NCBI RefSeq assembly: GCF_051903065.1
Contig: NZ_CP178438.1
Source: Escherichia coli
GTDB taxonomy: Bacteria; Pseudomonadota; Gammaproteobacteria; Enterobacterales; Enterobacteriaceae
Direction: 5' to 3' (one strand)
Length of the DNA: 64,000 bases
Made by a program: the position numbers and the translations under genes. Below the pieces are notes generated by a model, which worked only from the letters and a program-made list of their open reading frames with translations, ran no database searches and had not been told where the DNA came from. Shown here piece by piece: positions 1 to 48,020 of this stretch (position 1 is the stretch's first letter; each line of letters starts with the position of its first letter).

Positions 1-359
1 TGACAGTGTTGACCAGCATGGAAGCCAGCGACCTGGCCGATCTTGGCGTGACACTGTCACCTGCAGATTATGCAGAACGTCTGGCGGCACTGACGCAAAA
101 ATGTGGCCTTGATGGTGTGGTGTGTTCTGCTCAGGAAGCCGTGCGCTTTAAACAGGTATTCGGTCAGGAGTTCAAACTGGTTACACCGGGCATTCGTCCG
201 CAGGGGAGTGAAGCAGGTGACCAGCGCCGCATTATGACGCCAGAACAGGCGTTGGCGGCTGGTGTTGATTATATGGTGATTGGTCGCCCGGTAACGCAAT
301 CGGTAGATCCAGCGCAGACGCTGAAAGCGATCAACGCCTCTTTACAGCGGAGTGCATGA
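1..359 (+). CDS. pyrF: Orotidine 5'-phosphate decarboxylase, C-terminal part (5' end lies outside the window)
   Basis: ORF 6..359 open to the window edge; C-terminal sequence (...[12 protein letters not shown]...) recognised as PyrF; stop overlaps yciH start. Confidence 0.85.
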
Positions 360-685
360 TGAGTGATTCCAACAGCCGTCTGGTCTACTCAACAGAAACC
401 GGGCGTATTGATGAGCCCAAAGCGGCCCCAGTACGCCCTAAAGGCGATGGTGTGGTGCGTATTCAGCGTCAGACCAGTGGACGTAAAGGTAAGGGCGTTT
501 GCCTGATTACCGGTATCGATCTCGATGATGCCGAACTGACAAAACTTGCAGCGGAACTGAAGAAAAAATGCGGCTGCGGCGGAGCAGTTAAAGATGGAGT
601 TATTGAAATCCAGGGCGATAAGCGTGATTTATTAAAATCACTACTTGAAGCGAAAGGGATGAAGGTAAAACTCGCAGGCGGTTAA
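356..685 (+). CDS. yciH: Sui1-family translation initiation factor homolog
   Basis: 109-aa ORF, ATGA overlap with pyrF stop; sequence recognised as YciH. Confidence 0.85.
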
Positions 686-691
686 CATAAA

Positions 692-718
692 AAGCCACGG
701 ATATATCCGTGGCTTTCG
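692..718. terminator. GC-rich hairpin (agccacgg-N6-ccgtggct) followed by T-run, between convergent yciH and osmB
   Basis: Inverted repeat read directly in sequence just after the yciH stop. Confidence 0.6.
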
Positions 719-810
719 AATATTTTACTGTGTGTATTATTCAGTTATTTCGTACTGAACAGAATCAAGCGTATTATAATTGCGAGTCGATAATCGACAT
801 TTATTTACGA

Positions 811-1029
811 TTATTTACCGACCTGGTGACCAATAACACCACCGACAGCTGCGCCGCCTAATGTACCCAACGTACTGCCATCGGTCAGTACTGCACCGCC
901 TAATGCCCCTGCACCCGCGCCGATTGCGGTGTTGCGGTCCCGTTTAGACCAGTTAGAACAGGCACTCAGAGACATTGCCAGGGTAATTGCCAGAACAGCC
1001 GCGGTCATTTTTTTGCTCGTTACAAACAT
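811..1029 (-). CDS. osmB: Osmotically inducible lipoprotein B
   Basis: 72-aa ORF with lipoprotein signal (LSAC) and Gly-rich mature region; recognised as OsmB. Confidence 0.85.
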   Translation of the reverse strand: MFVTSKKMTAAVLAITLAMSLSACSNWSKRDRNTAIGAGAGALGGAVLTDGSTLGTLGGAAVGGVIGHQVGK

Positions 1030-1290
1030 AATACTCTCTCCTGAATTTATGATTCACGGAAGTAAGCTCTCTATAACTATAATAGCTAAGAATAAGCCTG
1101 GTGAAATTATTCCGTGAAATCCGCTCGCGCGCAGGGTTATATCACGCAGGTGATAATGACTTCCTGTTATATCGCTGATAATAATTTTATATCTTGAGAG
1201 TGTTAATAACAGGTAAATAGTCTTAATTATCAACCAGGAATCATCTTAGAGCGGATGATTTGTCAAACTGCAAATGGTAATGACTCCAAC

Positions 1291-1794
1291 TTATTGATAG
1301 TGTTTTATGTTCAGATAATGCCCGATGACTTTGTCATGCAGCTCCACCGATTTTGAGAACGACAGCGACTTCCGTCCCAGCCGTGCCAGGTGCTGCCTCA
1401 GATTCAGGTTATGCCGCTCAATTCGCTGCGTATATCGCTTGCTGATTACGTGCAGCTTTCCCTTCAGGCGGGATTCATACAGCGGCCAGCCATCCGTCAT
1501 CCATATCACCACGTCAAAGGGTGACAGCAGGCTCATAAGACGCCCCAGCGTCGCCATAGTGCGTTCACCGAATACGTGCGCAACAACCGTCTTCCGGAGC
1601 CTGTCATACGCGTAAAACAGCCAGCGCTGGCGCGATTTAGCCCCGACATAGCCCCACTGTTCGTCCATTTCCGCGCAGACGATGACGTCACTGCCCGGCT
1701 GTATGCGCGAGGTTACCGACTGCGGCCTGAGTTTTTTAAGTGACGTAAAATCGTGTTGAGGCCAACGCCCATAATGCGGGCTGTTGCCCGGCAT
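1291..1794 (-). CDS. insB: IS1 InsB (expressed as InsAB' transposase by -1 frameshift)
   Basis: 167-aa ORF identical to IS1 InsB; overlaps insA in the -1 frame. Confidence 0.95.
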
Positions 1795-1988
1795 CCAACG
1801 CCATTCATGGCCATATCAATGATTTTCTGGTGCGTACCGGGTTGAGAAGCGGTGTAAGTGAACTGCAGTTGCCATGTTTTACGGCAGTGAGAGCAGAGAT
1901 AGCGCTGATGTCCGGCGGTGCTTTTGCCGTTACGCACCACCCCGTCAGTAGCTGAACAGGAGGGACAGCTGATAGAAACAGAAGCCAC
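1713..1988 (-). CDS. insA: IS1 InsA
   Basis: 91-aa ORF identical to IS1 InsA ([22 protein letters not shown]...). Confidence 0.95.
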
Positions 1989-2072
1989 TGGAGCACCTCA
2001 AAAACACCATCATACACTAAATCAGTAAGTTGGCAGCATCACCCTGCAAATCATCCGTAGAGAGGGAAATGG

Positions 2073-2822
2073 TTAAATGTCAACGACGTGAACGGTGAGT
2101 TTACTGTGCTCAAGATGCATCAGATCGCTGGCGCGTATTTTCGAATCGGTAATCACGCGATTGAATCGCTCAACGGGACCGATGGAGTATGAATGTACAG
2201 CACCAAATTTCGAGCTGTCAGTCAGGACTATCGCTTCGCACTCTTTTTCCAGCACGGCATTCACCACATCGGTACGCATCATATCGCGACCGGTGAATCC
2301 AGTTTCAGGTTGCCAGCCATCAATACCAATAAATGCTTTGCTGAAATGTACCTGTTGGATGCACTGGCGTGTCAACGGGCCAACCATACTTTCGCTTTTT
2401 TTCTGGTACACGCCACCGAGCAAAATAACTTCACAAGGCGCGTCTTTCAGCAAATGCGCGATGTAGCTGCTGACCGTGATGATAGTGACATTTTTCTTCT
2501 GCTCCCCCAGAGTCCGGGCGAGCAGGGCATTGCTGCTGCCATTTTCGATAAAGATGGTTTCGCCCGGTTGAACCAGTGACGCGGCAAACTCGGCGAGTTC
2601 ACGCTTCAGCGTATAGTTGCTCATCATACGGGTTTCGACGTCATCACTATCAAGCGAAACTGCAAAGCCATGTGCACGGCGGAGGTAACTCAGTTTTTCG
2701 AGGGTGTTGAGATCCTGGCGAATGGTAACTTCAGAAACTCCAGTGGCTTTTGCCAGATCGGTTACGCTAACCTGACCCTGGTCAATGACCATCTGTAGAA
2801 TAGTTTGTTGTCGGGAATTCAT
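2073..2822 (-). CDS. yciT: DeoR-family transcriptional regulator
   Basis: 249-aa ORF with N-terminal HTH and DeoR-type C-terminal domain; recognised as YciT. Confidence 0.85.
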
Positions 2823-2911
2823 CGCTGTAATTCTTATAACGTTATAATACTAAATAAAAAAATACTGACGCGCCGGGCATCCTCAAATAGGAAAACCTGA
2901 AGGCACGATTG

Positions 2912-3085
2912 TTAAATCTCCCAAGGTGCCTTCGGGATGTCTGGCGTAGATTCAGCAACCTGGCGCAAGAGTTCTGCTTTAAGTATCTCGAGATTATGGA
3001 TCGCAGAGTGGTAATCGCCTGCCACAAGGATATCTAACACAATATCAATACGTTCGGCAACGCGCTGGGCATCAAATTCAGACAT
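2912..3085 (-). CDS. yciZ: Small UPF0509-family protein
   Basis: ORF 2912..3094; start chosen at the internal Met ([14 protein letters not shown]...) from memory of K-12 YciZ (57 aa). Confidence 0.7.
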
Positions 3086-3232
3086 CAAGGACATCCTTAT
3101 AGCAAAAGGGGGAAAATGAATAATGCAAAAATTGCCGCTAAAAGAGAAGTGTTTAACAGCAACGGCTAATTATCATCCGGGAATACGATATATAATGACG
3201 GAATATAGCGCTAAGTATATATATTCATCTAC

Positions 3233-5218
3233 TTATGCGCGCTTCAGATAGCGTTTATACCAGCGTTCGAAGGCGACGGCGGGCATCGGTTTGGCAAACA
3301 AAAATCCTTGCCGCTCATTGATCCCATTCTTGGTTAAAAAAGCATCTTCCTTTGCACTCTCTACACCTTCGGCGATCACCTGAAGATTCAATGCCTGGGC
3401 CACAGCGACGATTGCCCGAACCAGTGACTGCGAGACAGGTTGTTTGTGAATATCTCGAACAAAAACCTGGTCAAGTTTGATGGCATCGATCGGAAAGCGC
3501 GCCAGTTGCGAAAGTGAAGAGTAGCCGGTACCAAAATCATCCAGATGCACTTGCGCACCTAGTTGGCTAAATTGTTGAATAACAGACAGTGCCAGTTCAT
3601 CATTCTCAATCAGACAACTCTCTGTCAATTCAACATCAATAGGGCAGTATTCAAAATTGAGTTCCTGGAGAACCTGTTTCAGGGCGGTGAAAATGGTTTG
3701 ATCGGCGAGCTGACGTGCAGAAATGTTTACCGCCACTCGCAGGTTAATGCCTTTATCCCGCCACTTCGCCACCTGGCGTACGACATCGAGAATCACCCAA
3801 CGGCCTAAAGGCACAATTAGCCCTGACTCTTCTGCGTAGGAAATGAAGTCCAACGGTGGAATCAACCCACGTTCAGGTGACTGCCAACGTACTAGTGCTT
3901 CCAGACTGCGCACTTCGCCACGCCAGGTGATTTTTGGTTGATAGTGAATAACCAACTGATCGTTTTCCAGTGCTTTACGCAAGTTGGTATCCAGCCAGAG
4001 ATATTCAAATACCCGTTGATTCATTTCTGGGGTAAAAACGCAAAATTGTCCTCGTCCGCCTTCCTTTGCTGTGTACATTGCTGTGTCGGCGTGACGAATA
4101 ATAGCCGCGCTGTCCGAACCATGTTCGGGAGAGAGTGCAATACCTACTGAACAGCTGGTATAAACTTCAATTAAACCAATGCGAAAGGGGAGCCGTAAGC
4201 GGGTCAAAATTCGTGATGCCATTGCTTCCAGCGCGCTTTGTGAGGTGTTGGATGCCAGTACCAGAAACTCATCGCCACCTGGACGCGCCAACACCTGGTC
4301 ATGTTCGAGACAGCTTAAAATAGCCAATGACACGTCGCGTAATAACTGGTCACCAAACAAATGCCCATAGGCGTCGTTGACCTTTTTAAAATTATCCAAA
4401 TCAAGATACACGACCCCAACTTTATTGTTATCTGCCTGATTAATAGCGTGATCGATTAACTCCTGCATTGCGTTACGATTCGGCAGTCCGGTGATACTGT
4501 CGGTATTTGCCAGAATACGCAGTCGTTCCTGAGCGCGGCGCTCTTCGGTAATGTCGGTGCCGGAACAGATTAAAAAAATCTCGTTTTTGCCACTGCCGCT
4601 GTGGACAAATTTATTGCGAAACAGAAACAGCCGCTGGCCTTTACGTGTTGGTATCCACAGTTCGACTTCATATGCATTGCCGCTTCGAAAAAATACACGG
4701 TTATTGCGCCTGGATGCCGCAGCTTCACGACGGCTCATAAACAGTTTAAACACGCTTTGCCCAATGACGTCGTGTTCGTTCAACCCTGTGTAATCTTCAC
4801 ATAACCGATTGAAGCGTTGGATATTCCCCCGGCTGTCGAGAATCACTATTGCGGAATGTGCTTCAGAAACTACCTGCTCAGCAAAGGAAAGTCCGTGTGA
4901 TAAATCACGAGCAACTGCTGGTGTGTCATGCCATGCAGACGCGTTGCCAGCCCATTCCCGTTTATTGATTTTTCGTCCTACCAGATGCACAGAAAGATCG
5001 CTCTCATCGACGGTCAGACTCATCATCAGGCTGGAGGTGATGACCGTCATTTCCCTGATGCGAGCAGCCTGTTCAGCAGATAACTGCAACGTACGTTCAG
5101 GTTCTGTGGTTTCGGTGGTAGAAAAGCGCAAAACATCGCTGCTTTCCGTCAACCGCCAGTATGGATTGTGCGATCCGAGAAAGTTGTACAACGTTGTGGA
5201 CTCCCTAACGGTTTTCAT
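3233..5218 (-). CDS. pdeR: Cyclic-di-GMP phosphodiesterase (PAS-GGDEF-EAL)
   Basis: 661-aa ORF; GGDEF-like and EAL-type domain signatures in the translation; recognised as PdeR/Gmr (YciR). Confidence 0.9.
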   Translation of the reverse strand: MKTVRESTTLYNFLGSHNPYWRLTESSDVLRFSTTETTEPERTLQLSAEQAARIREMTVITSSLMMSLTVDESDLSVHLVGRKINKREWAGNASAWHDTPAVARDLSHGLSFAEQVVSEAHSAIVILDSRGNIQRFNRLCEDYTGLNEHDVIGQSVFKLFMSRREAAASRRNNRVFFRSGNAYEVELWIPTRKGQRLFLFRNKFVHSGSGKNEIFLICSGTDITEERRAQERLRILANTDSITGLPNRNAMQELIDHAINQADNNKVGVVYLDLDNFKKVNDAYGHLFGDQLLRDVSLAILSCLEHDQVLARPGGDEFLVLASNTSQSALEAMASRILTRLRLPFRIGLIEVYTSCSVGIALSPEHGSDSAAIIRHADTAMYTAKEGGRGQFCVFTPEMNQRVFEYLWLDTNLRKALENDQLVIHYQPKITWRGEVRSLEALVRWQSPERGLIPPLDFISYAEESGLIVPLGRWVILDVVRQVAKWRDKGINLRVAVNISARQLADQTIFTALKQVLQELNFEYCPIDVELTESCLIENDELALSVIQQFSQLGAQVHLDDFGTGYSSLSQLARFPIDAIKLDQVFVRDIHKQPVSQSLVRAIVAVAQALNLQVIAEGVESAKEDAFLTKNGINERQGFLFAKPMPAVAFERWYKRYLKRA

Positions 5219-5452
5219 GATGCATATCCTCCGGTTAACAGCGGAGTCCGCGGTTAAATAAAAGGAACAACATGACTTACATGAAATTAACGGCGGCTAA
5301 ACACATTGTTTTTTTTATATATTTATTTGTAATCTAGTTTTGGAAAAACGCCAGTTTTCAAACGAAAGTCAGTTAAAAAACTGCCGGGATATGATGAAGG
5401 TAGAGCGGGGAAATAAACGGCCCATTCATAAGGAATGGGCCGTGAAAGGAGA

Positions 5453-7387
5453 TTACGCGACCGGGCGCGCAATAATGCTGCGGGTTTCCATGCGGACTTC
5501 GGCAATGGTGACGTCAATAACGTCAGTTACTTTATAAACCGTTTCACCTTTAATTTGTACGGTGCCGTTTTCCTGGCTGCAAACCAGTTCATCGCGCACA
5601 GCGTGTAAGAAAGGTGCCGGAATAAAGGCGATAGCGCCGTTATCAACCAAACGAACACGCATGCCGCCACGGCTGATATCGACAATTTCCGCTGCGAAAC
5701 GGGTGTCGGTCCCGGCTTTGTCTTTCAGGAAGCGTGCGTATAACCAGTCACCAACATCACGTTCTGCCATCCGGTTGAGACGGCGACGCTCGGCCATTTG
5801 GACAGTGATTTCATCCTGTGGACGCGTCGCAGTTTCACCTTTGATAACCGCTTTCAGCAGACGGTGGTTGATCATGTCGCCATATTTACGGATCGGCGAA
5901 GTCCAGGTGGCGTATGCCTCCAGACCGAGGCCAAAGTGAGGACCGGGTTCAGTGCTAATTTCAGCAAATGACTGGAAGCGACGAATGCGGCTGTCGAGGA
6001 AACCAGTTGGTTGCGCGTCCAGTTCACGACGCAGTTTGCAGAAACCGTCCAGCGTGAGCACTTCTTCGGCATCGACATGCAGACCGTGCGTTTTCAGCAA
6101 CGCTGCCAGCGCGTCGGCATTCGCCGGATCAAAGCCCATATGCACGTTATAGATGCCAAAACCGAGCTTATCGCGCAGTACGCGGGCCGCACAAATATTA
6201 GCGGCGATCATCGCTTCTTCGACGATACGGTTGGCAATGCGACGAGGCTCGGCGACGATATCCAGCACTTCACCTTTTTCACCGAGAATAAAGCGGTAAT
6301 CCGGGCGATCTTTAAACACCAGTGCGTGGTTATGACGCCACTCGCCGCGTCGTTGGCAAATTTGCGCTAGCAAACGGACTTGTTCGGCAATTGCTTCACT
6401 TTCAGGCTGCCAGTCACCGGTATTTTCCAGCCAGTCAGAAACCTGGTCATACACCAGCTTCGCTTTGGATTCGATGGTGGCGGCAAAGAATTCGATATTA
6501 TCTTCAATGGTGCCATCAGCGGAGAGCGTCATGCGGCATGCCAGTACCGGACGGACTTCATTGGCGCGCAGTGAGCAGAGATCGTCAGAAAGCTCGCGAG
6601 GAAGCATAGGGATGTTGAAGCCAGGCAGATAGTTGGTGAATGCGCGAATTTTCGCGGCTTTGTCCAGCTTGCTGCCTTCAGCAATCCACGCGGTTGGATC
6701 GGCAATCGCCACAATCAGCTGAAGTTTGTCATCCGGCAACGCCTTAGCGAAAAGGGCGTCATCCATATCTTCTGTGCTGGCACTGTCGATGGTGACAAAA
6801 TCCAGCGCGGTCAGATCTTCACGAACCAGACCTTCATCGAGCATTTCGGTAGCGACGCCGTCTGGTGCTTCTTTTTCCAGATTATGGCGCGCAAGTGTAA
6901 CCCACCACGGTACAAAGTGGTCGTCACCAAAAGTGATGTATTGTGTCAGTTCAGCATAGAAAGAACGATCGCCTTTCAGCGGATGACGGCGCATTTCGGC
7001 AACCGCCCAGTCGCCTTCTTTAAACTCGTGGTTCAGGCCACGGGCTGCGCGGCAAGGAATGGCGTCTTTTAAGAGTGGATGATCAGGAACGATGGCCAGA
7101 CGGTCATTTTTGCCCTGAACTTTACCCACGAAACGAGTCAGGAACGGTTCAACCAGTTCTTCTGGCTCTGCGGATTCACGTTCTTTTTCACTGTGGATCA
7201 CCGCGATAATTCGGTCGCCATGCATGACTTTTTTCATCTGCGGCGGCGGAATGAAATAACTTTTTTGCGCGTCGACTTCCAGGAAGCCAAAGCCTTTTTC
7301 TGTGGCTTTTACCACCCCTTCAGCGCGTGGCGTCTGGGAATGCAGTTGCTGTTTAAGCTGCGCTAGCAGCGGGTTGTCCTGAAACAT
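5453..7387 (-). CDS. rnb: Exoribonuclease II
   Basis: 644-aa ORF recognised as RNase II (RNB catalytic domain, C-terminal S1 domain). Confidence 0.9.
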
Positions 7388-7454
7388 AATTGTCTATTTT
7401 GGTGGCCATTAGAGCGGCTGACAGTTTTACGCGAATCTGTCTGACGCGGCAAGG

Positions 7455-8582
7455 TTAATATGTCTCACCCAACGCGATTTTTAAGCGATTTATCCAGCCA
7501 CACAGCCCGCTCCATACCAGCAGATTAATAATCTGCGTTGATGATTTTTCGTGTTCGAGTAAAGGGCTGAACTGGGCGGCGCTAAAGCGATCGGGTGCTC
7601 GGGTCAGCCATTGTATCGCCTGAACGGTAGCGCGCTCAACAGAATGACGGTCAGCCCATTGGTTAATTTCATTTTCGCCCTTGCGCAGAAGGGTGCTGAT
7701 TTTTTTATATTCATTTGATGAATCCATACAGGTGGCAAAACAAGCAGGACTGCCATTTATACGCGCGCATAACAACGCCGCAAGCTGATTATCCGGCTGT
7801 GTATTGACCCGTGTGCTGTTTAACAACTTTTCGAGAAGGGAAAGTGAAATAGGGTGGAGAGAGAGTATTTCGGCCAGTTGGCAAAGTTCTGCAGTTGAAC
7901 TTTTTGTGTGCTCTTCAGGTAGTTTTTCCACCTCATAGCTGCTTCGCCAGCGTAATGATTCATCAGCAAACAGTGACGCGTCGGCGTAGTTTTGTATCTC
8001 CAGCCCGGGTAACCAGCGTACCGGATGCCCGAGATAAGCCTGAAATGTCGCAATTGTCCGCGCCTGAAAGCCAATAAAACCAATGATTTGGTTAATGATC
8101 ACACAGTCCCAGGCAGTAAGACCGACGTCATTCAGATGCTGGCGCGATCGGTTGTCGATAATAGAAGGCGAGCTAGCCAGTTGGCGGGCATATTGCGTGA
8201 TTTGTGCCAACCGATGATTACTTTCCCTGGTGGAATCAGGCCCGGGGAGCGGCGTAAGTCGCGCCGAATAGTAGTTACATAACCGCTGGACGCCGCAAAC
8301 CTGAGCAACCGTCAGGGCCGTCGACAAGCGTTCATAAGCGGTGAAGGTCTGTGAACGGGTCACGGTAAGCTGGTCAGGGAACAAATCCACTGCAAGAACA
8401 CGCGCAGGGTCCAGCCATGAAAGGAAGGGGGCCAGCGTTTCTTTTTCAAGGATCACGTCGAGTAGAAAGGGATCGCTGACCTTTGCGGCTTCCGGGACCA
8501 GAGGCAGAACGTCATACTCCGTAGTACTGGATTGCGTTTCATGATACCAGTGGCTTTTGCCGGTGATGTGGCGTTGTTCCAT
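7455..8582 (-). CDS. yciW: Uncharacterised protein YciW
   Basis: ORF 7455..8660 (401 aa); start probably at the internal Met ([10 protein letters not shown]...) giving about 375 aa as in K-12; start uncertain. Confidence 0.7.
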
Positions 8583-8725
8583 GGGCGCTCCTTGGTCGTA
8601 AAGGAAATCGTTATCCTGACGCAAGGCGGGAAGGGGAGAAAGACGGATCGGCGATAACAAATATCAGAAAGGTATAACAGAGATAACGGGCGGCACAACG
8701 CCGCCCATCTTTACCAACAGAACGA

Positions 8726-9514
8726 TTATTTCAGTTCGAGTTCGTTCATTGCAGCAATGCTGAAACCGCCGTCAACGTGGACCACTTCACCGGAGATACC
8801 GGCAGAGAGATCGGAGCACAGGAATGCCGCAGAGTTACCCACATCTTCAATAGTAACGGTACGGCGAATCGGGGTAACGGCTTCGCAATGAGCCAGCATT
8901 TTGCGGAAGTCTTTGATGCCGGAGGCCGCCAGAGTACGGATCGGACCAGCAGAGATGGCGTTAACACGCACACCTTCCGGACCCATCGCGTTCGCCATAT
9001 AGCGCACGTTCGCTTCCAGAGACGCTTTTGCCAGACCCATAACGTTGTAGTTCGGGATAGCGCGCTCAGCGCCAAGGTAGGAAAGGGTCAGCAGGGCAGA
9101 ACCCGGATTCAGCATGGAGCGGCAAGCTTTTGCCATTGCAACGAAGCTGTAGGAGCTGATGTCGTGAGCAATTTTGAAGCCTTCACGGGTAACGGCGTTA
9201 ACATAGTCACCATCCAGCTGATCGCCAGGTGCAAAACCAATAGAGTGTACGAAACCGTCAAATTTCGGCCAAACTTTCCCCAGTTCAGCGAACATGGTGT
9301 CGATGCTGGCATCTTCGGCAACATCGCACTGCAGAACGATGTCAGAACCCAATTGAGCGGCAAATTCTTCTACGCGGCCTTTCAGTTTGTCGTTCTGGTA
9401 GGTGAATGCCAGTTCAGCTCCTTCGCGGTGCATCGCCTGAGCGATACCGTAGGCGATGGACAGTTTGCTGGCAACACCGGTTACCAGAATGCGCTTACCG
9501 GAAAGAAAACCCAT
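8726..9514 (-). CDS. fabI: Enoyl-[acyl-carrier-protein] reductase (NADH)
   Basis: 262-aa [43 protein letters not shown]... recognised as FabI. Confidence 0.95.
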
Positions 9515-9949
9515 AGCTTTAATCCTTATTGTTGATGCTTGTTTGCCTGAAAATCAGGCGATTCGTCGTTTTAGTAAACAGTACGAACAGATAAACGGTT
9601 ATTATAATCAACCTGGCTGTGGGTGGCTATAGTTGCGCTTTCTGTACCGGAGAGAAGCTGCGGTACAGAGCATTTTGCGTTATCTACTCTTGACGCCTGC
9701 AAGGGGTAGGTTGGGGAAATATCTTATAGAATCTGACTATGAAACTATTCGTATTAGCTCCGATAAGTTTGATGATGAAAACAGAACTGGCGACAACAAG
9801 TAGCTGCCTTTCTGATGAATTTACCCCAACTTAATATTGTCAACTATCTTCACAGAATCTCCACAATCTCTTCATTATCAGAATATGCACCATGGGTGAT
9901 GCTGCCAACTTACTGATTTAGTGTATGATGGTGTTTTTGAGGTGCTCCA

Positions 9950-10225
9950 GTGGCTTCTGTTTCTATCAGCTGTCCCTCCTGTTCAGCTACTGACGGGGTG
10001 GTGCGTAACGGCAAAAGCACCGCCGGACATCAGCGCTATCTCTGCTCTCACTGCCGTAAAACATGGCAACTGCAGTTCACTTACACCGCTTCTCAACCCG
10101 GTACGCACCAGAAAATCATTGATATGGCCATGAATGGCGTTGGATGCCGGGCAACAGCCCGCATTATGGGCGTTGGCCTCAACACGATTTTACGTCACTT
10201 AAAAAACTCAGGCCGCAGTCGGTAA
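9950..10225 (+). CDS. insA: IS1 InsA
   Basis: Identical 91-aa InsA. Confidence 0.95.
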
Positions 10226-10647
10226 CCTCGCGCATACAGCCGGGCAGTGACGTCATCGTCTGCGCGGAAATGGACGAACAGTGGGGCTATGTCGGGGCTA
10301 AATCGCGCCAGCGCTGGCTGTTTTACGCGTATGACAGGCTCCGGAAGACGGTTGTTGCGCACGTATTCGGTGAACGCACTATGGCGACGCTGGGGCGTCT
10401 TATGAGCCTGCTGTCACCCTTTGACGTGGTGATATGGATGACGGATGGCTGGCCGCTGTATGAATCCCGCCTGAAGGGAAAGCTGCACGTAATCAGCAAG
10501 CGATATACGCAGCGAATTGAGCGGCATAACCTGAATCTGAGGCAGCACCTGGCACGGCTGGGACGGAAGTCGCTGTCGTTCTCAAAATCGGTGGAGCTGC
10601 ATGACAAAGTCATCGGGCATTATCTGAACATAAAACACTATCAATAA
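10144..10647 (+). CDS. insB: IS1 InsB (InsAB' by -1 frameshift at the A6C motif near 10200..10207)
   Basis: Identical 167-aa InsB; ttaaaaaactc slippery run present. Confidence 0.95.
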
Positions 10648-10701
10648 GTTGGAGTCATTACCAAAAGCCAGTCAGACAGCGCAGTTGTTCGTATAAAAGA
10701 T

Positions 10702-35577: not shown

Positions 35578-36870
35578 ATGATTAAATCAAAAATCGTGCT
35601 GTTATCAGCACTGGTTTCCTGCGCCCTGATTTCAGGCTGTAAAGAAGAAAATAAAACCCATGTATCCATCGAATTTATGCATTCTTCGGTGGAGCAGGAG
35701 CGTCAGGCAGTTATCAGCAAATTGATTGCCCGTTTTGAAAAAGAAAACCCAGGTATCACCGTTAAACAAGTGCCCGTGGAAGAAGACGCTTATAACACCA
35801 AAGTCATCACCCTTTCACGTAGCGGCTCGCTGCCGGAAGTGATCGAAACCAGCCATGACTACGCCAAAGTTATGGATAAAGAGCAGCTTATCGATCGCAA
35901 AGCGGTTGCCACGGTCATCAGCAACGTTGGTGAAGACGCGTTTTACGATGGCGTACTGCGTATTGTGCGTACCGAAGATGGGAGTGCCTAGACCGGTGTT
36001 CCCGTCAGCGCCTGGATTGGCGGCATCTGGTATCGCAAAGATGTGCTGGCAAAAGCCGGGCTGGAGGAGCCGAAAAACTGGCAACAGCTGCTGGACGTTG
36101 CACAGAAACTGAATGACCCGGCGAATAAAAAATACGGTATTGCGCTGCCTACGGCAGAAAGCGTGCTGACGGAACAATCCTTCTCCCAGTTTGCGTTATC
36201 CAACCAGGCCAATGTCTTTAACTCTGCAGGCAAAATCACCCTTGATACACCAGAGATGATGCAAGCACTGACCTATTACCGCGACCTTGCCACCAACACC
36301 ATGCCGGGTTCTAACGATATCATGGAAGTGAAAGACGCCTTTATGAACGGCACCGCGCCGATGGCGATTTACTCCACCTATATCCTTCCGGCTGTGATTA
36401 AAGAAGGCGATCCGAAAAACGTCGGTTTCGTCGTGCCAACGGAGAAAAACTCTGCGGTCTACGGCATGTTGACCTCGCTGACCATTACCGCCGGGCAAAA
36501 GACCGAAGAAACGGAAGCAGCAGAAAAATTCGTCACCTTTATGGAGCAGGCGGACAACATTGCCGACTGGGTGATGATGTCGCCAGGCGCGGCACTGCCG
36601 GTGAACAAAGCGGTTGTCACTACCGCCACCTGGAAAGACAACGACGTGATCAAGGCGCTGGGTGAACTGCCGAATCAGTTAATTGGTGAACTGCCAAATA
36701 TTCAGGTTTTTGGCGCAGTAGGGGATAAAAACTTTACCCGCATGGGTGATGTGACGGGTTCTGGCGTGGTGAGTTCAATGGTGCATAACGTCACCGTGGG
36801 TAAAGCCGATCTCTCTACTACGCTGCAAGCGAGCCAGAAAAAACTGGATGAACTGATCGAACAGCACTAA
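35578..36870 (+). pseudogene. ycjN: ABC-transporter periplasmic sugar-binding protein interrupted by an in-frame amber codon (TAG at 35989..35991)
   Basis: ORFs 35578..35991 and 36043..36870 are in the same frame; the protein reads continuously across the single TAG (...RTEDGSA*TGVPVSAWIGG...). Confidence 0.8.
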
Positions 36871-46594: not shown

Positions 46595-47124
46595 TGAACT
46601 GCACCCCAAATGTTGGACATAATCTGACATCTGAAGGTGCAGTTTATGAAACATTCATTTGAAGTAAAACTTGCCGCTGTAAATCATTACCTGGCCGGTC
46701 ATGCAGGCATCATTTCTACGGCAAAACTCTTTCAACTTTCTCACACCAGCCTCTCACACTGGATTAATCTTTTTCTTCTTCACGGTCCTCAGGCACTGGA
46801 TTGCAGACACAAGCGTAGCTATTCTCCTGAAGATAAACTTTGCGTGGTTCTTTATGCTCTCGGGCATTCTGAGTCTCTACCCCGGGTAGCTGCCCGGTTT
46901 AACATTCCCAGCCACAACATGGTTAAAAACTGGATAAAAGGCTACCGCAAATCTGGTAATGAGGCCTTTATCAGGCGCAGGAAGGAGAAAAGCATGACCC
47001 GTTCTGATGATACCCATGAAAACGAGGCAAACATGACGCCGGAAGAGATGAAGAATGAGCTGCGTTATCTTCGCGCAGAAAATGCATATCTGAAAGCCAT
47101 GCAGGAGCATCTCCTGGAAAAAAA

Positions 47125-48020
<896 letters not shown>

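Follow-up and report, generated by a model that had tools for sequence, protein, structure and literature searches.

Pairs of IS1 copies can form compound transposons, with the two copies in direct orientation in Tn9 and in inverted orientation in Tn1681, where they lie around a heat-stable toxin gene. Deletions promoted by IS1 were reportedly described by Reif and Saedler and, for the replicative kind, by Turlan and Chandler in 1995. The target duplications of IS1 are 8 or 9 bp long (PMC12428005). Two explanations have been given for absent duplications, namely adjacent deletion and recombination between copies of the IS (PMC11708052).

In this work, a stretch of 64,000 nucleotides of Escherichia coli DNA (the window) was analyzed, in which two IS1 copies enclose the chromosomal segment from yciT to fabI and one of the copies adjoins a deletion. 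As a reference for the reconstruction, the near-identical E. coli ECNB21-M121 (L002 in the coordinates below) was used, which carries neither IS1 and is 99.92-99.99% identical to the window across all flanks. The IS1 pair and the deletion are a textbook case and represent ordinary genome wear.

Structure and insertion of the IS1 copies

The window holds only two IS1 copies, located at 1276-2043 (minus strand) and 9895-10662 (plus strand). They are 768 bp each and were found by direct string comparison to be exact reverse complements; an inverted-repeat search likewise returned one pair, with arms at 1275-2044 and 9894-10663 (770 nt, 100% complementary). Both results bear out the first-pass annotation, which had described two identical IS1 copies in inverted orientation. 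The distance between them is 7,851 bp. Copy 1 is of the IS1A type, with the IRR end at 1276 and the IRL end at 2043, and its open reading frames are insA (1713-1988) and the insB frame (1291-1794), both on the minus strand. In copy 2, IRL occupies 9895-9917 and IRR 10640-10662, with insA at 9950-10225 and the insB frame at 10144-10647 on the plus strand. The terminal inverted repeats, IRL GGTGATGCTGCCAACTTACTGAT and IRR GGTAATGACTCCAACTTATTGAT, are identical at 18 of 23 positions, and the A6C frameshift motif of copy 2 is found at 10201-10207 (TTAAAAAAC spans 10199-10207). The NCBIfam model NF033558 matched both reading frames of copy 2: the insA product (91 aa) covers model positions 1-81 and also matches the IS1/IS1595 zinc-binding domain, and the insB-frame product covers positions 75-199 with 145.6 bits against a cut-off of 100. 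In NZ_AP045789.1, both elements were annotated by PGAP as "IS1-like element IS1A family transposase" with a "programmed frameshift". The length of ~768 bp, the imperfect inverted repeats of ~23 bp, the insA/insB' -1 frameshift and, at copy 1, the 8-bp duplication are those of the IS1 family; the structure is the same throughout as that of IS1A/IS1 of E. coli K-12, from which the elements differ only in their clone-specific insertion sites.

On both sides of copy 1 the 8-bp sequence CTGCAAAT is found as a target-site duplication, at 1268..1275 on the left and 2044..2051 on the right. In the IS-free relative, the empty site (L002 7461-7468) contains a single CTGCAAAT, and a random 8-bp match at these flanks has a probability of ~4^-8. 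Because of the duplication and the empty site, copy 1 is a simple insertion, as the first-pass annotation had claimed. The distance of 29 bp given there from the yciT stop to the IS1 end was also correct, the stop codon starting at 2073 and the spacer being 2044-2072. On the other side, copy 1 is located 246 bp upstream of the start codon of osmB (811..1029, minus strand), its transposase is transcribed towards osmB, and promoter-like sites were found between the insertion site and osmB.

In other genomes, the duplication was 8 bp long in three and 9 bp long in four of seven nearby IS1 insertions. IS1 was found inside a 3.5-kb query in 18 genomes, with identical orientation in 7/7 examined; the search joins pieces on one strand only, so that IS1 insertions of the opposite orientation fall under its coverage cut. 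With ~11 chromosomal IS1 copies per genome, a target of 2.7 kb and 5,426 genomes, ~16 same-orientation insertions are expected. The osmB-yciT region was therefore rejected as an IS1 hotspot with orientation bias, the search being one-stranded and the count near expectation.

Both sets of junctions were found in two of 5,426 complete genomes, 23CRST027 and 23CRST031, which belong to one Ecuadorian collection, and both IS1 events are specific to this clone. Since IS copies are a classic source of misassembly, and 1-bp indels in homopolymers of the IS1 copies separate the window from the clone-mate assemblies, it was considered whether one IS1 copy or the deletion had arisen from a collapsed or misplaced repeat. 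This is highly unlikely: the window shares all four IS1-chromosome junctions without any difference with two complete genomes that were assembled independently, each junction sequence is unique, and a proper duplication flanks copy 1. The refuting condition named in the first-pass annotation, that the copies are assembly artefacts of one element, was thus not upheld. The chromosome of this clone contains ~37 IS1 copies, compared with ~28 in the IS-free relative; hence, IS1 has apparently been active recently in this lineage.

The deletion at copy 2

Copy 2 is flanked by GCACCATG on the left and AAAAGCCA on the right, and re-inspection of the flanks found no direct repeat, as had been stated earlier. 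On comparison with the IS-free relative, it was found that the window skips L002 15313-18000, exactly 2,688 bp, and that copy 2 occupies this place. The copy lacks a duplication because of this deletion, and the earlier proposal that the missing duplication marks an IS1-associated deletion was thereby supported. The comparison with relatives free of each IS1, which the first-pass annotation had recommended, gave both events from a single genome, and the two insertions, the duplication and the exact deletion were all observed.

The deletion lies wholly within an accessory RND-efflux island (TetR-adaptor-RND-OMF-MFS) situated between fabI and sapF, which the first-pass annotation had not recognized. 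At the left junction (9894..9895), the last kept base is the counterpart of L002 15312; it lies upstream of both the fabI ATG (by 380 bp) and the start of the lost TetR/AcrR gene (by 96 bp). At the right junction (10662..10663), the first kept base corresponds to L002 18001, in codon 253 of the RND permease gene. According to the annotation and the NCBIfam matches, the lost DNA comprised the TetR/AcrR regulator gene, the RND adaptor gene and codons 1-252 of the RND permease. What is left of the last is a 5'-truncated pseudogene (10663..13014, plus strand) without its first 252 codons, in which the profile match begins at ~264-266 of ~1040 model positions. The remainder of the island (13018..15563) is intact and consists of an outer-membrane factor (13018-14391) and a Bcr/CflA-type MFS transporter (14400-15563), both on the plus strand; the accessions of the two proteins are identical to those of the IS-free relative. 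It was thus the efflux operon that was destroyed at copy 2; fabI, its proximal promoter region and the whole 380 bp upstream of the gene are untouched by IS1.

Two further readings of these junctions were rejected. The IS1 junction is not the island boundary, as K-12-like homology stops at L002 15081, 231 bp before it. A translational fusion of InsB with the RND remnant does not result either; the reading frame is shared, yet the TAA stop of insB intervenes.

A comparable event was found in E. coli AVS0968 (NZ_CP124392.1), where an IS1 in the same orientation, also without duplication, replaces fabI-proximal DNA of the same island. That IS1 is a different variant (93% identical), and the deletion has its endpoints at L002 15097 and 16025, with 927 bp (the TetR/AcrR gene) lost and the pump genes intact. 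The deletion of the TetR gene in AVS0968 is independent of that in the window.

Routes to the deletion

The account that is favored, with guarded confidence, is that two separate recent transpositions of IS1A took place in situ in one clone and that copy 2 then made an adjacent deletion. Copy 1 made a clean insertion between osmB and yciT, creating the 8-bp duplication, and copy 2 would initially have inserted somewhere in the efflux island that separates fabI from sapF. Intramolecular replicative transposition may have followed, with one end of copy 2 attacking an AT-rich site close by on that chromosome, in which case 2,688 bp would have been discarded as a circle and a single IS1 without duplication would have remained. 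AT-rich targets are preferred by IS1, and the left endpoint is AT-rich (GC 0.25, against 0.40 at the right endpoint). The net effects are the loss of RND pump function, as regulator, adaptor and N-terminal part of the permease are all absent, and a stretch of 7.85 kb of native chromosome that happens to sit between identical inverted IS1 copies. The replicative-transposition route, the order of the events and any effect on expression are what we infer.

The locus resembles the adjacent deletions known for IS1 and for IS150 in the long-term evolution experiment (PMC11708052), in that an IS end abuts a kilobase-scale gap without duplication; it differs in that the precursor was not observed, and recombination between IS copies is equally compatible with it. 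Indeed, the end product fits intramolecular transposition and recombination between direct IS1 copies equally. In the recombination route, local hopping would have placed two direct IS1 copies ~2.7 kb apart, one of them upstream of the TetR gene, the other inside the RND permease gene, with a duplication around each, and RecA-dependent recombination would have deleted the interval to leave one hybrid IS1. In mutation-accumulation lines of E. coli, 46% of IS-bounded deletions were ≤3 kb, and most deletions of this size were ascribed to a proximal (local) transposition with subsequent recombination between the direct copies (PMC5009759), which speaks for this route and counts against the favored account. 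However, three events would be required at the locus rather than two, and neither precursor insertion was found in any of 5,426 genomes. One-ended adjacent deletions are made readily by IS1, which also counts against recombination, and this route is considered a real possibility but the less probable of the two. The precursor of the adjacent deletion, an IS1 at one endpoint with an intact duplication, was not found among the 5,426 complete E. coli genomes either.

It is improbable that IS1 arrived and 2.7 kb were lost in a single aberrant transposition in which no duplication was ever made, and we know of no event of such a kind shown for IS1. Moves of IS5 and IS481 have been found to coincide with rearrangements, without duplication or detectable precursor (PMC11708052), and a precursor is likewise missing here among the 5,426 genomes. 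Against this, 14/14 IS150 cases in the long-term evolution experiment proceeded by insertion followed by adjacent deletion (PMC11708052).

The bracketed segment

The segment between the copies (2052..9894, minus strand, ~7.85 kb) is native chromosome. It contains yciT (2073-2822), yciZ (2912-3085), pdeR (3233-5218), rnb (5453-7387), yciW (7455-8582) and fabI (8726-9514), all on the minus strand, together with ymiD on the plus strand; fabI is essential and is the triclosan target. The gene content agrees with that first reported (ymiD aside) and with the RefSeq annotation of the near-identical chromosome NZ_AP045789.1. On comparison with L002 7461-15312, the segment was found to be 99.96% identical as one collinear block with unchanged orientation.

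In the first-pass annotation, the pair was described as a composite-transposon-like structure enclosing fabI and rnb and as a substrate for inversion by recombination. The geometry stands in both cases: two intact IS1 copies, here identical, lie around a passenger segment of a few kb, as in Tn9 and Tn1681, and are inverted as in the latter. In contrast to these transposons, the passenger is a native neighbourhood in its ancestral place with the essential fabI, no duplication surrounds the unit and no second copy was found elsewhere. It is extremely unlikely that the 9.4-kb IS1-fabI...yciT-IS1 block functions as a composite transposon and arrived or moved as one unit, or that it is a duplicative-inversion product of one IS1. 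IS-free relatives have the interior in the same order and orientation, the outer neighbours are the normal ones (osmB, and the island with sapF), and the outer flanks, CTGCAAAT (1268-1275) and AAAAGCCA (10663-10670), do not form a duplication; two IS flanks are thus present, but neither a unit duplication nor a new context or other replicon. Duplicative inversion was rejected, as the segment is not inverted and such an event would have parted the two duplication copies of copy 1, both of which still adjoin it.

A search of a plasmid database, with matches taken at record level, did not find an IS1-flanked plasmid-borne copy of the segment; the matches to the E. coli segment were whole chromosomes or large non-mobilizable records. 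Plasmid capture of fabI likewise found no support; in the one Klebsiella record inspected, a small "plasmid", fabI is bounded by IS26 and prophage genes and not by IS1. The inverted isomer was not seen in the two public clone-mates, whose orientation is that of the window. With a native interior and without a unit duplication, a plasmid copy or an inverted isomer, the composite transposon and the inversion are structural potential only.

With ~37 IS1 copies in the genome, ~2 equally close pairs are expected by chance. It is very unlikely that the pair already acts as a nascent compound transposon, or as a segment able to invert, that could move or flip fabI together with rnb and pdeR, or that the IS1 events at this locus were selected. 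If the pair were mobile, it would mark the beginning of a path to an Enterobacterial fabI that is carried on a plasmid and mobilised by IS1. If there had been selection, the candidates would be loss or rewiring of the RND/OMF/MFS island, as well as a rare deletion of 1 bp at 9544 in the leader of fabI. The 768-bp inverted repeat pair could in principle flip 7.85 kb of core chromosome.

Beyond strain bookkeeping, the significance is small: a recent IS1 expansion in a human-gut E. coli clone has turned an accessory RND operon into a pseudogene. The locus can serve as a worked example of how an IS without target duplication flags an adjacent deletion, and of how such an event can be traced to the base pair with the help of a close relative that lacks the IS.

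An Rfam scan of 1-16000 did not find a structured RNA family at the gathering threshold. The 5' leader of fabI was observed to carry a rare 1-bp deletion.

The IS1 pair in its clone

The window holds exactly two IS1 copies of 768 bp each, at 1276-2043 (copy 1, minus strand) and 9895-10662 (copy 2, plus strand), and the 7.85-kb segment between them carries yciT, yciZ, ymiD, pdeR, rnb, yciW and fabI. The first-pass annotation had described two identical, inverted copies bracketing yciT-yciZ-pdeR-rnb-yciW-fabI; this was confirmed by a string comparison, in which the copies are perfect reverse complements, and by a repeat search, which returned 770-nt arms of 100% complementarity. The 23-bp terminal repeats are imperfect (18/23 matching), the insA ORF and the insB-frame ORF each match the NCBIfam IS1 transposase model NF033558, and the frameshift motif TTAAAAAAC lies at 10199-10207 in copy 2. 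It was found that the observation and its reading were both correct: these are two recent IS1A insertions, one of them with a 2.7-kb IS1-associated deletion that makes an accessory efflux operon a pseudogene. The pair and its deletion are ordinary biology of an already known kind.

At 99.99% identity, the window matches the chromosome of E. coli 23CRST027 (NZ_AP045789.1, from position 1687955) and that of its sibling 23CRST031, both isolated from human faeces in Santo Domingo, Ecuador; a few bases differ from both, which makes it a third member of this clone. All four IS1-chromosome junctions are identical in the three genomes, which rules out an assembly artefact, a possibility raised earlier. 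In 23CRST027 (copy 1) and 23CRST031 (both copies), the G4/C4 run that occupies the equivalent position of each copy, 1546 and 10395 in the window, has one base fewer, and PGAP therefore calls those transposases "frameshifted"; the shortening probably reflects homopolymer assembly errors rather than real inactivation. Within pdeR, a single synonymous A/G difference from both clone-mates is present at 5075, and the encoded protein is identical to that of E. coli ECNB21-M121.

Copy 1 between osmB and yciT

The genome of ECNB21-M121 (NZ_CP083585.1; locus L002) has neither IS1 and is 99.92-99.99% identical over all three flanking blocks, and it served as the IS-free reference. CTGCAAAT stands on either side of copy 1, at 1268-1275 and 2044-2051, and the empty site in L002 has this sequence only once (7461-7468); hence, copy 1 is a simple insertion that duplicated 8 bp, as had been proposed. 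This length is usual for IS1: its target duplication is reported as "8 bp or 9 bp" (PMC12428005), and at seven other nearby IS1 insertions in other genomes it was 8 bp in three and 9 bp in four.

The insertion is separated from the downstream osmB ATG by 246 bp that include both promoter-like sites, and it splits a stable hairpin located 20-47 nt beyond the yciT stop codon. This palindrome, GGATGATTTG-N8-CAAATCATCC (window 1248-1275 and 2044-2056; L002 7441-7468 region), has a perfect 10-bp stem and a predicted RNA fold of -18.4 kcal/mol (z-score -3.7); no U-tract follows, so it does not qualify as a canonical intrinsic terminator. Copy 1 may make yciT termination less efficient or shield osmB from the sequence upstream.

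Copy 2 and the efflux island

The flanks of copy 2, GCACCATG and AAAAGCCA, form no repeat, so that the reported lack of a duplication was borne out. The comparison with a related genome lacking either IS1, which had been recommended, revealed both the empty site of copy 1 and the DNA missing at copy 2: exactly 2,688 bp (L002 15313-18000) is replaced by the element, in line with the IS1-mediated adjacent deletion or rearrangement that had been suggested. The loss comprises a TetR/AcrR-family regulator gene (L002 15409-15975), an RND periplasmic adaptor gene (L002 16124-17245) and the first 252 codons of the RND permease gene (L002 17245-20352), the residual pseudogene of which begins at about position 265 of the ~1040-position profile. 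Downstream of it are an intact outer-membrane factor (OMF) gene and an intact Bcr/CflA-type MFS transporter gene. The RND pump would thus be inactivated, and the OMF and MFS genes would be deprived of their native upstream promoter and regulator; these two genes, which share the transcriptional direction of the IS1 transposase, may receive read-through from the element. The truncated RND remnant starting at 10663 continues the insB reading frame, but the insB stop TAA (10645-10647) stands between them and prevents an InsB-RND fusion.

An IS without duplication exactly at a deletion is the textbook mark of adjacent deletion or of recombination between two directly oriented copies (PMC11708052; PMC5009759). 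On balance we lean towards adjacent deletion, in which an IS1 already present at the copy 2 locus would have undergone intramolecular replicative transposition. IS1 is a classic maker of replicative one-ended deletions, reportedly a subject of Turlan and Chandler (1995); for this reason, and because one event fewer is needed, adjacent deletion is favoured. Local hopping to give two directly oriented copies, followed by recombination between them, would leave the same product but takes one event more, and is a somewhat less probable route. A precursor of the deletion was not found among 5,426 complete E. coli genomes. Two in-situ IS1 insertions and an IS1-associated deletion are common to adjacent deletion and two-copy recombination, and this much is essentially certain.

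The TetR-adaptor-RND-OMF-MFS block is accessory: 2,043 of the 5,426 genomes carry this island between fabI and sapF, and K-12-like genomes have ycjD at this position instead. Homology between the two types stops at L002 15081, 150 bp upstream of the fabI ATG, and the left junction of copy 2 is 231 bp deeper into the island; the deletion is therefore wholly in accessory DNA, with fabI and the conserved 150 bp upstream intact. There is no sign that either IS1 affects fabI. In what is presumably the 5' leader of fabI, 30 nt before the start codon (9514, minus strand), the window has a 1-bp deletion at 9544 (TGCTTGTTGTGCC to TGCTTGTTTGCC, relative to the clone-mates and ECNB21-M121). JNE170426 is the only one of 5,422 complete E. 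coli genomes with an exact match to the window over a 121-bp stretch here; the change reflects either a genuine but rare mutation close to the gene for the triclosan target or a sequencing error.

In E. coli AVS0968 (NZ_CP124392.1), an independent IS1-family element (6382-7149 of its locus, 93% identical), also without duplication, is found in the same island. It replaces 927 bp (L002 15098-16024) and only the TetR/AcrR regulator gene is lost, the adaptor, RND and OMF genes being intact; this loss might derepress the pump.

Mobility, inversion and IS1 density

Compound transposons are known with inverted (Tn1681) or direct (Tn9) IS1 copies. The composite-transposon-like character ascribed to the present pair holds in geometry only, and movement as a unit was rejected: the interior retains its ancestral neighbourhood, orientation and neighbours, no duplication surrounds the whole unit, and copy 1 has its own intact duplication, which also excludes duplicative inversion. 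The plasmid database yielded no plasmid-borne copy of the E. coli segment with IS1 at its ends, flanks being inspected in one Klebsiella circle. The E. coli matches were either chromosomes of 4.8-4.9 Mb entered as plasmids or large non-mobilizable records of 250-390 kb, and the small Klebsiella circles with fabI carry this segment in its Klebsiella version. In the inspected circle (K. pneumoniae CP089956.1, a 27.8-kb circular record), it lies between IS26 and lambdoid prophage genes. The circle contains Klebsiella chromosomal rnb-yciW-fabI-...-sapFDC, with a prophage integrase adjoining sapC, and resembles the product of an aberrant prophage excision that took fabI along.

Inversions bounded by IS elements are common in experimental evolution (PMC5009759), so two inverted repeats of 768 bp separated by 7.85 kb could certainly recombine. 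The pair is thus an inversion substrate in principle, but the inverted isomer was not seen in either public clone-mate, both being collinear with the window.

This chromosome has ~37 IS1 copies vs ~28 in ECNB21-M121. Random placement of 37 copies on 4.94 Mb would give an expected ~2.1 neighbouring pairs no more than 7.85 kb apart, a number that local hopping would push up (PMC5009759); a close pair is unremarkable against chance. Independent IS1 insertions, each with an 8- or 9-bp duplication, were observed in seven other E. coli genomes in yciH, osmB-yciT (three further sites), yciZ-ymiD, pdeR and pdeR-rnb. Clustering around osmB-yciT in other genomes was rejected, as background IS1 density accounts for it, and an apparently uniform orientation there was an artefact of the search joining matches strand by strand.

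Elsewhere in the window, an IS3-family element (~46646-47994), with an IS1397-like transposase and programmed frameshift, lies between ompG and ycjW, and ycjN (35578-36870), encoding an ABC transporter substrate-binding protein, is interrupted by a stop at codon 138; the clone-mate annotation lists it as a pseudogene.
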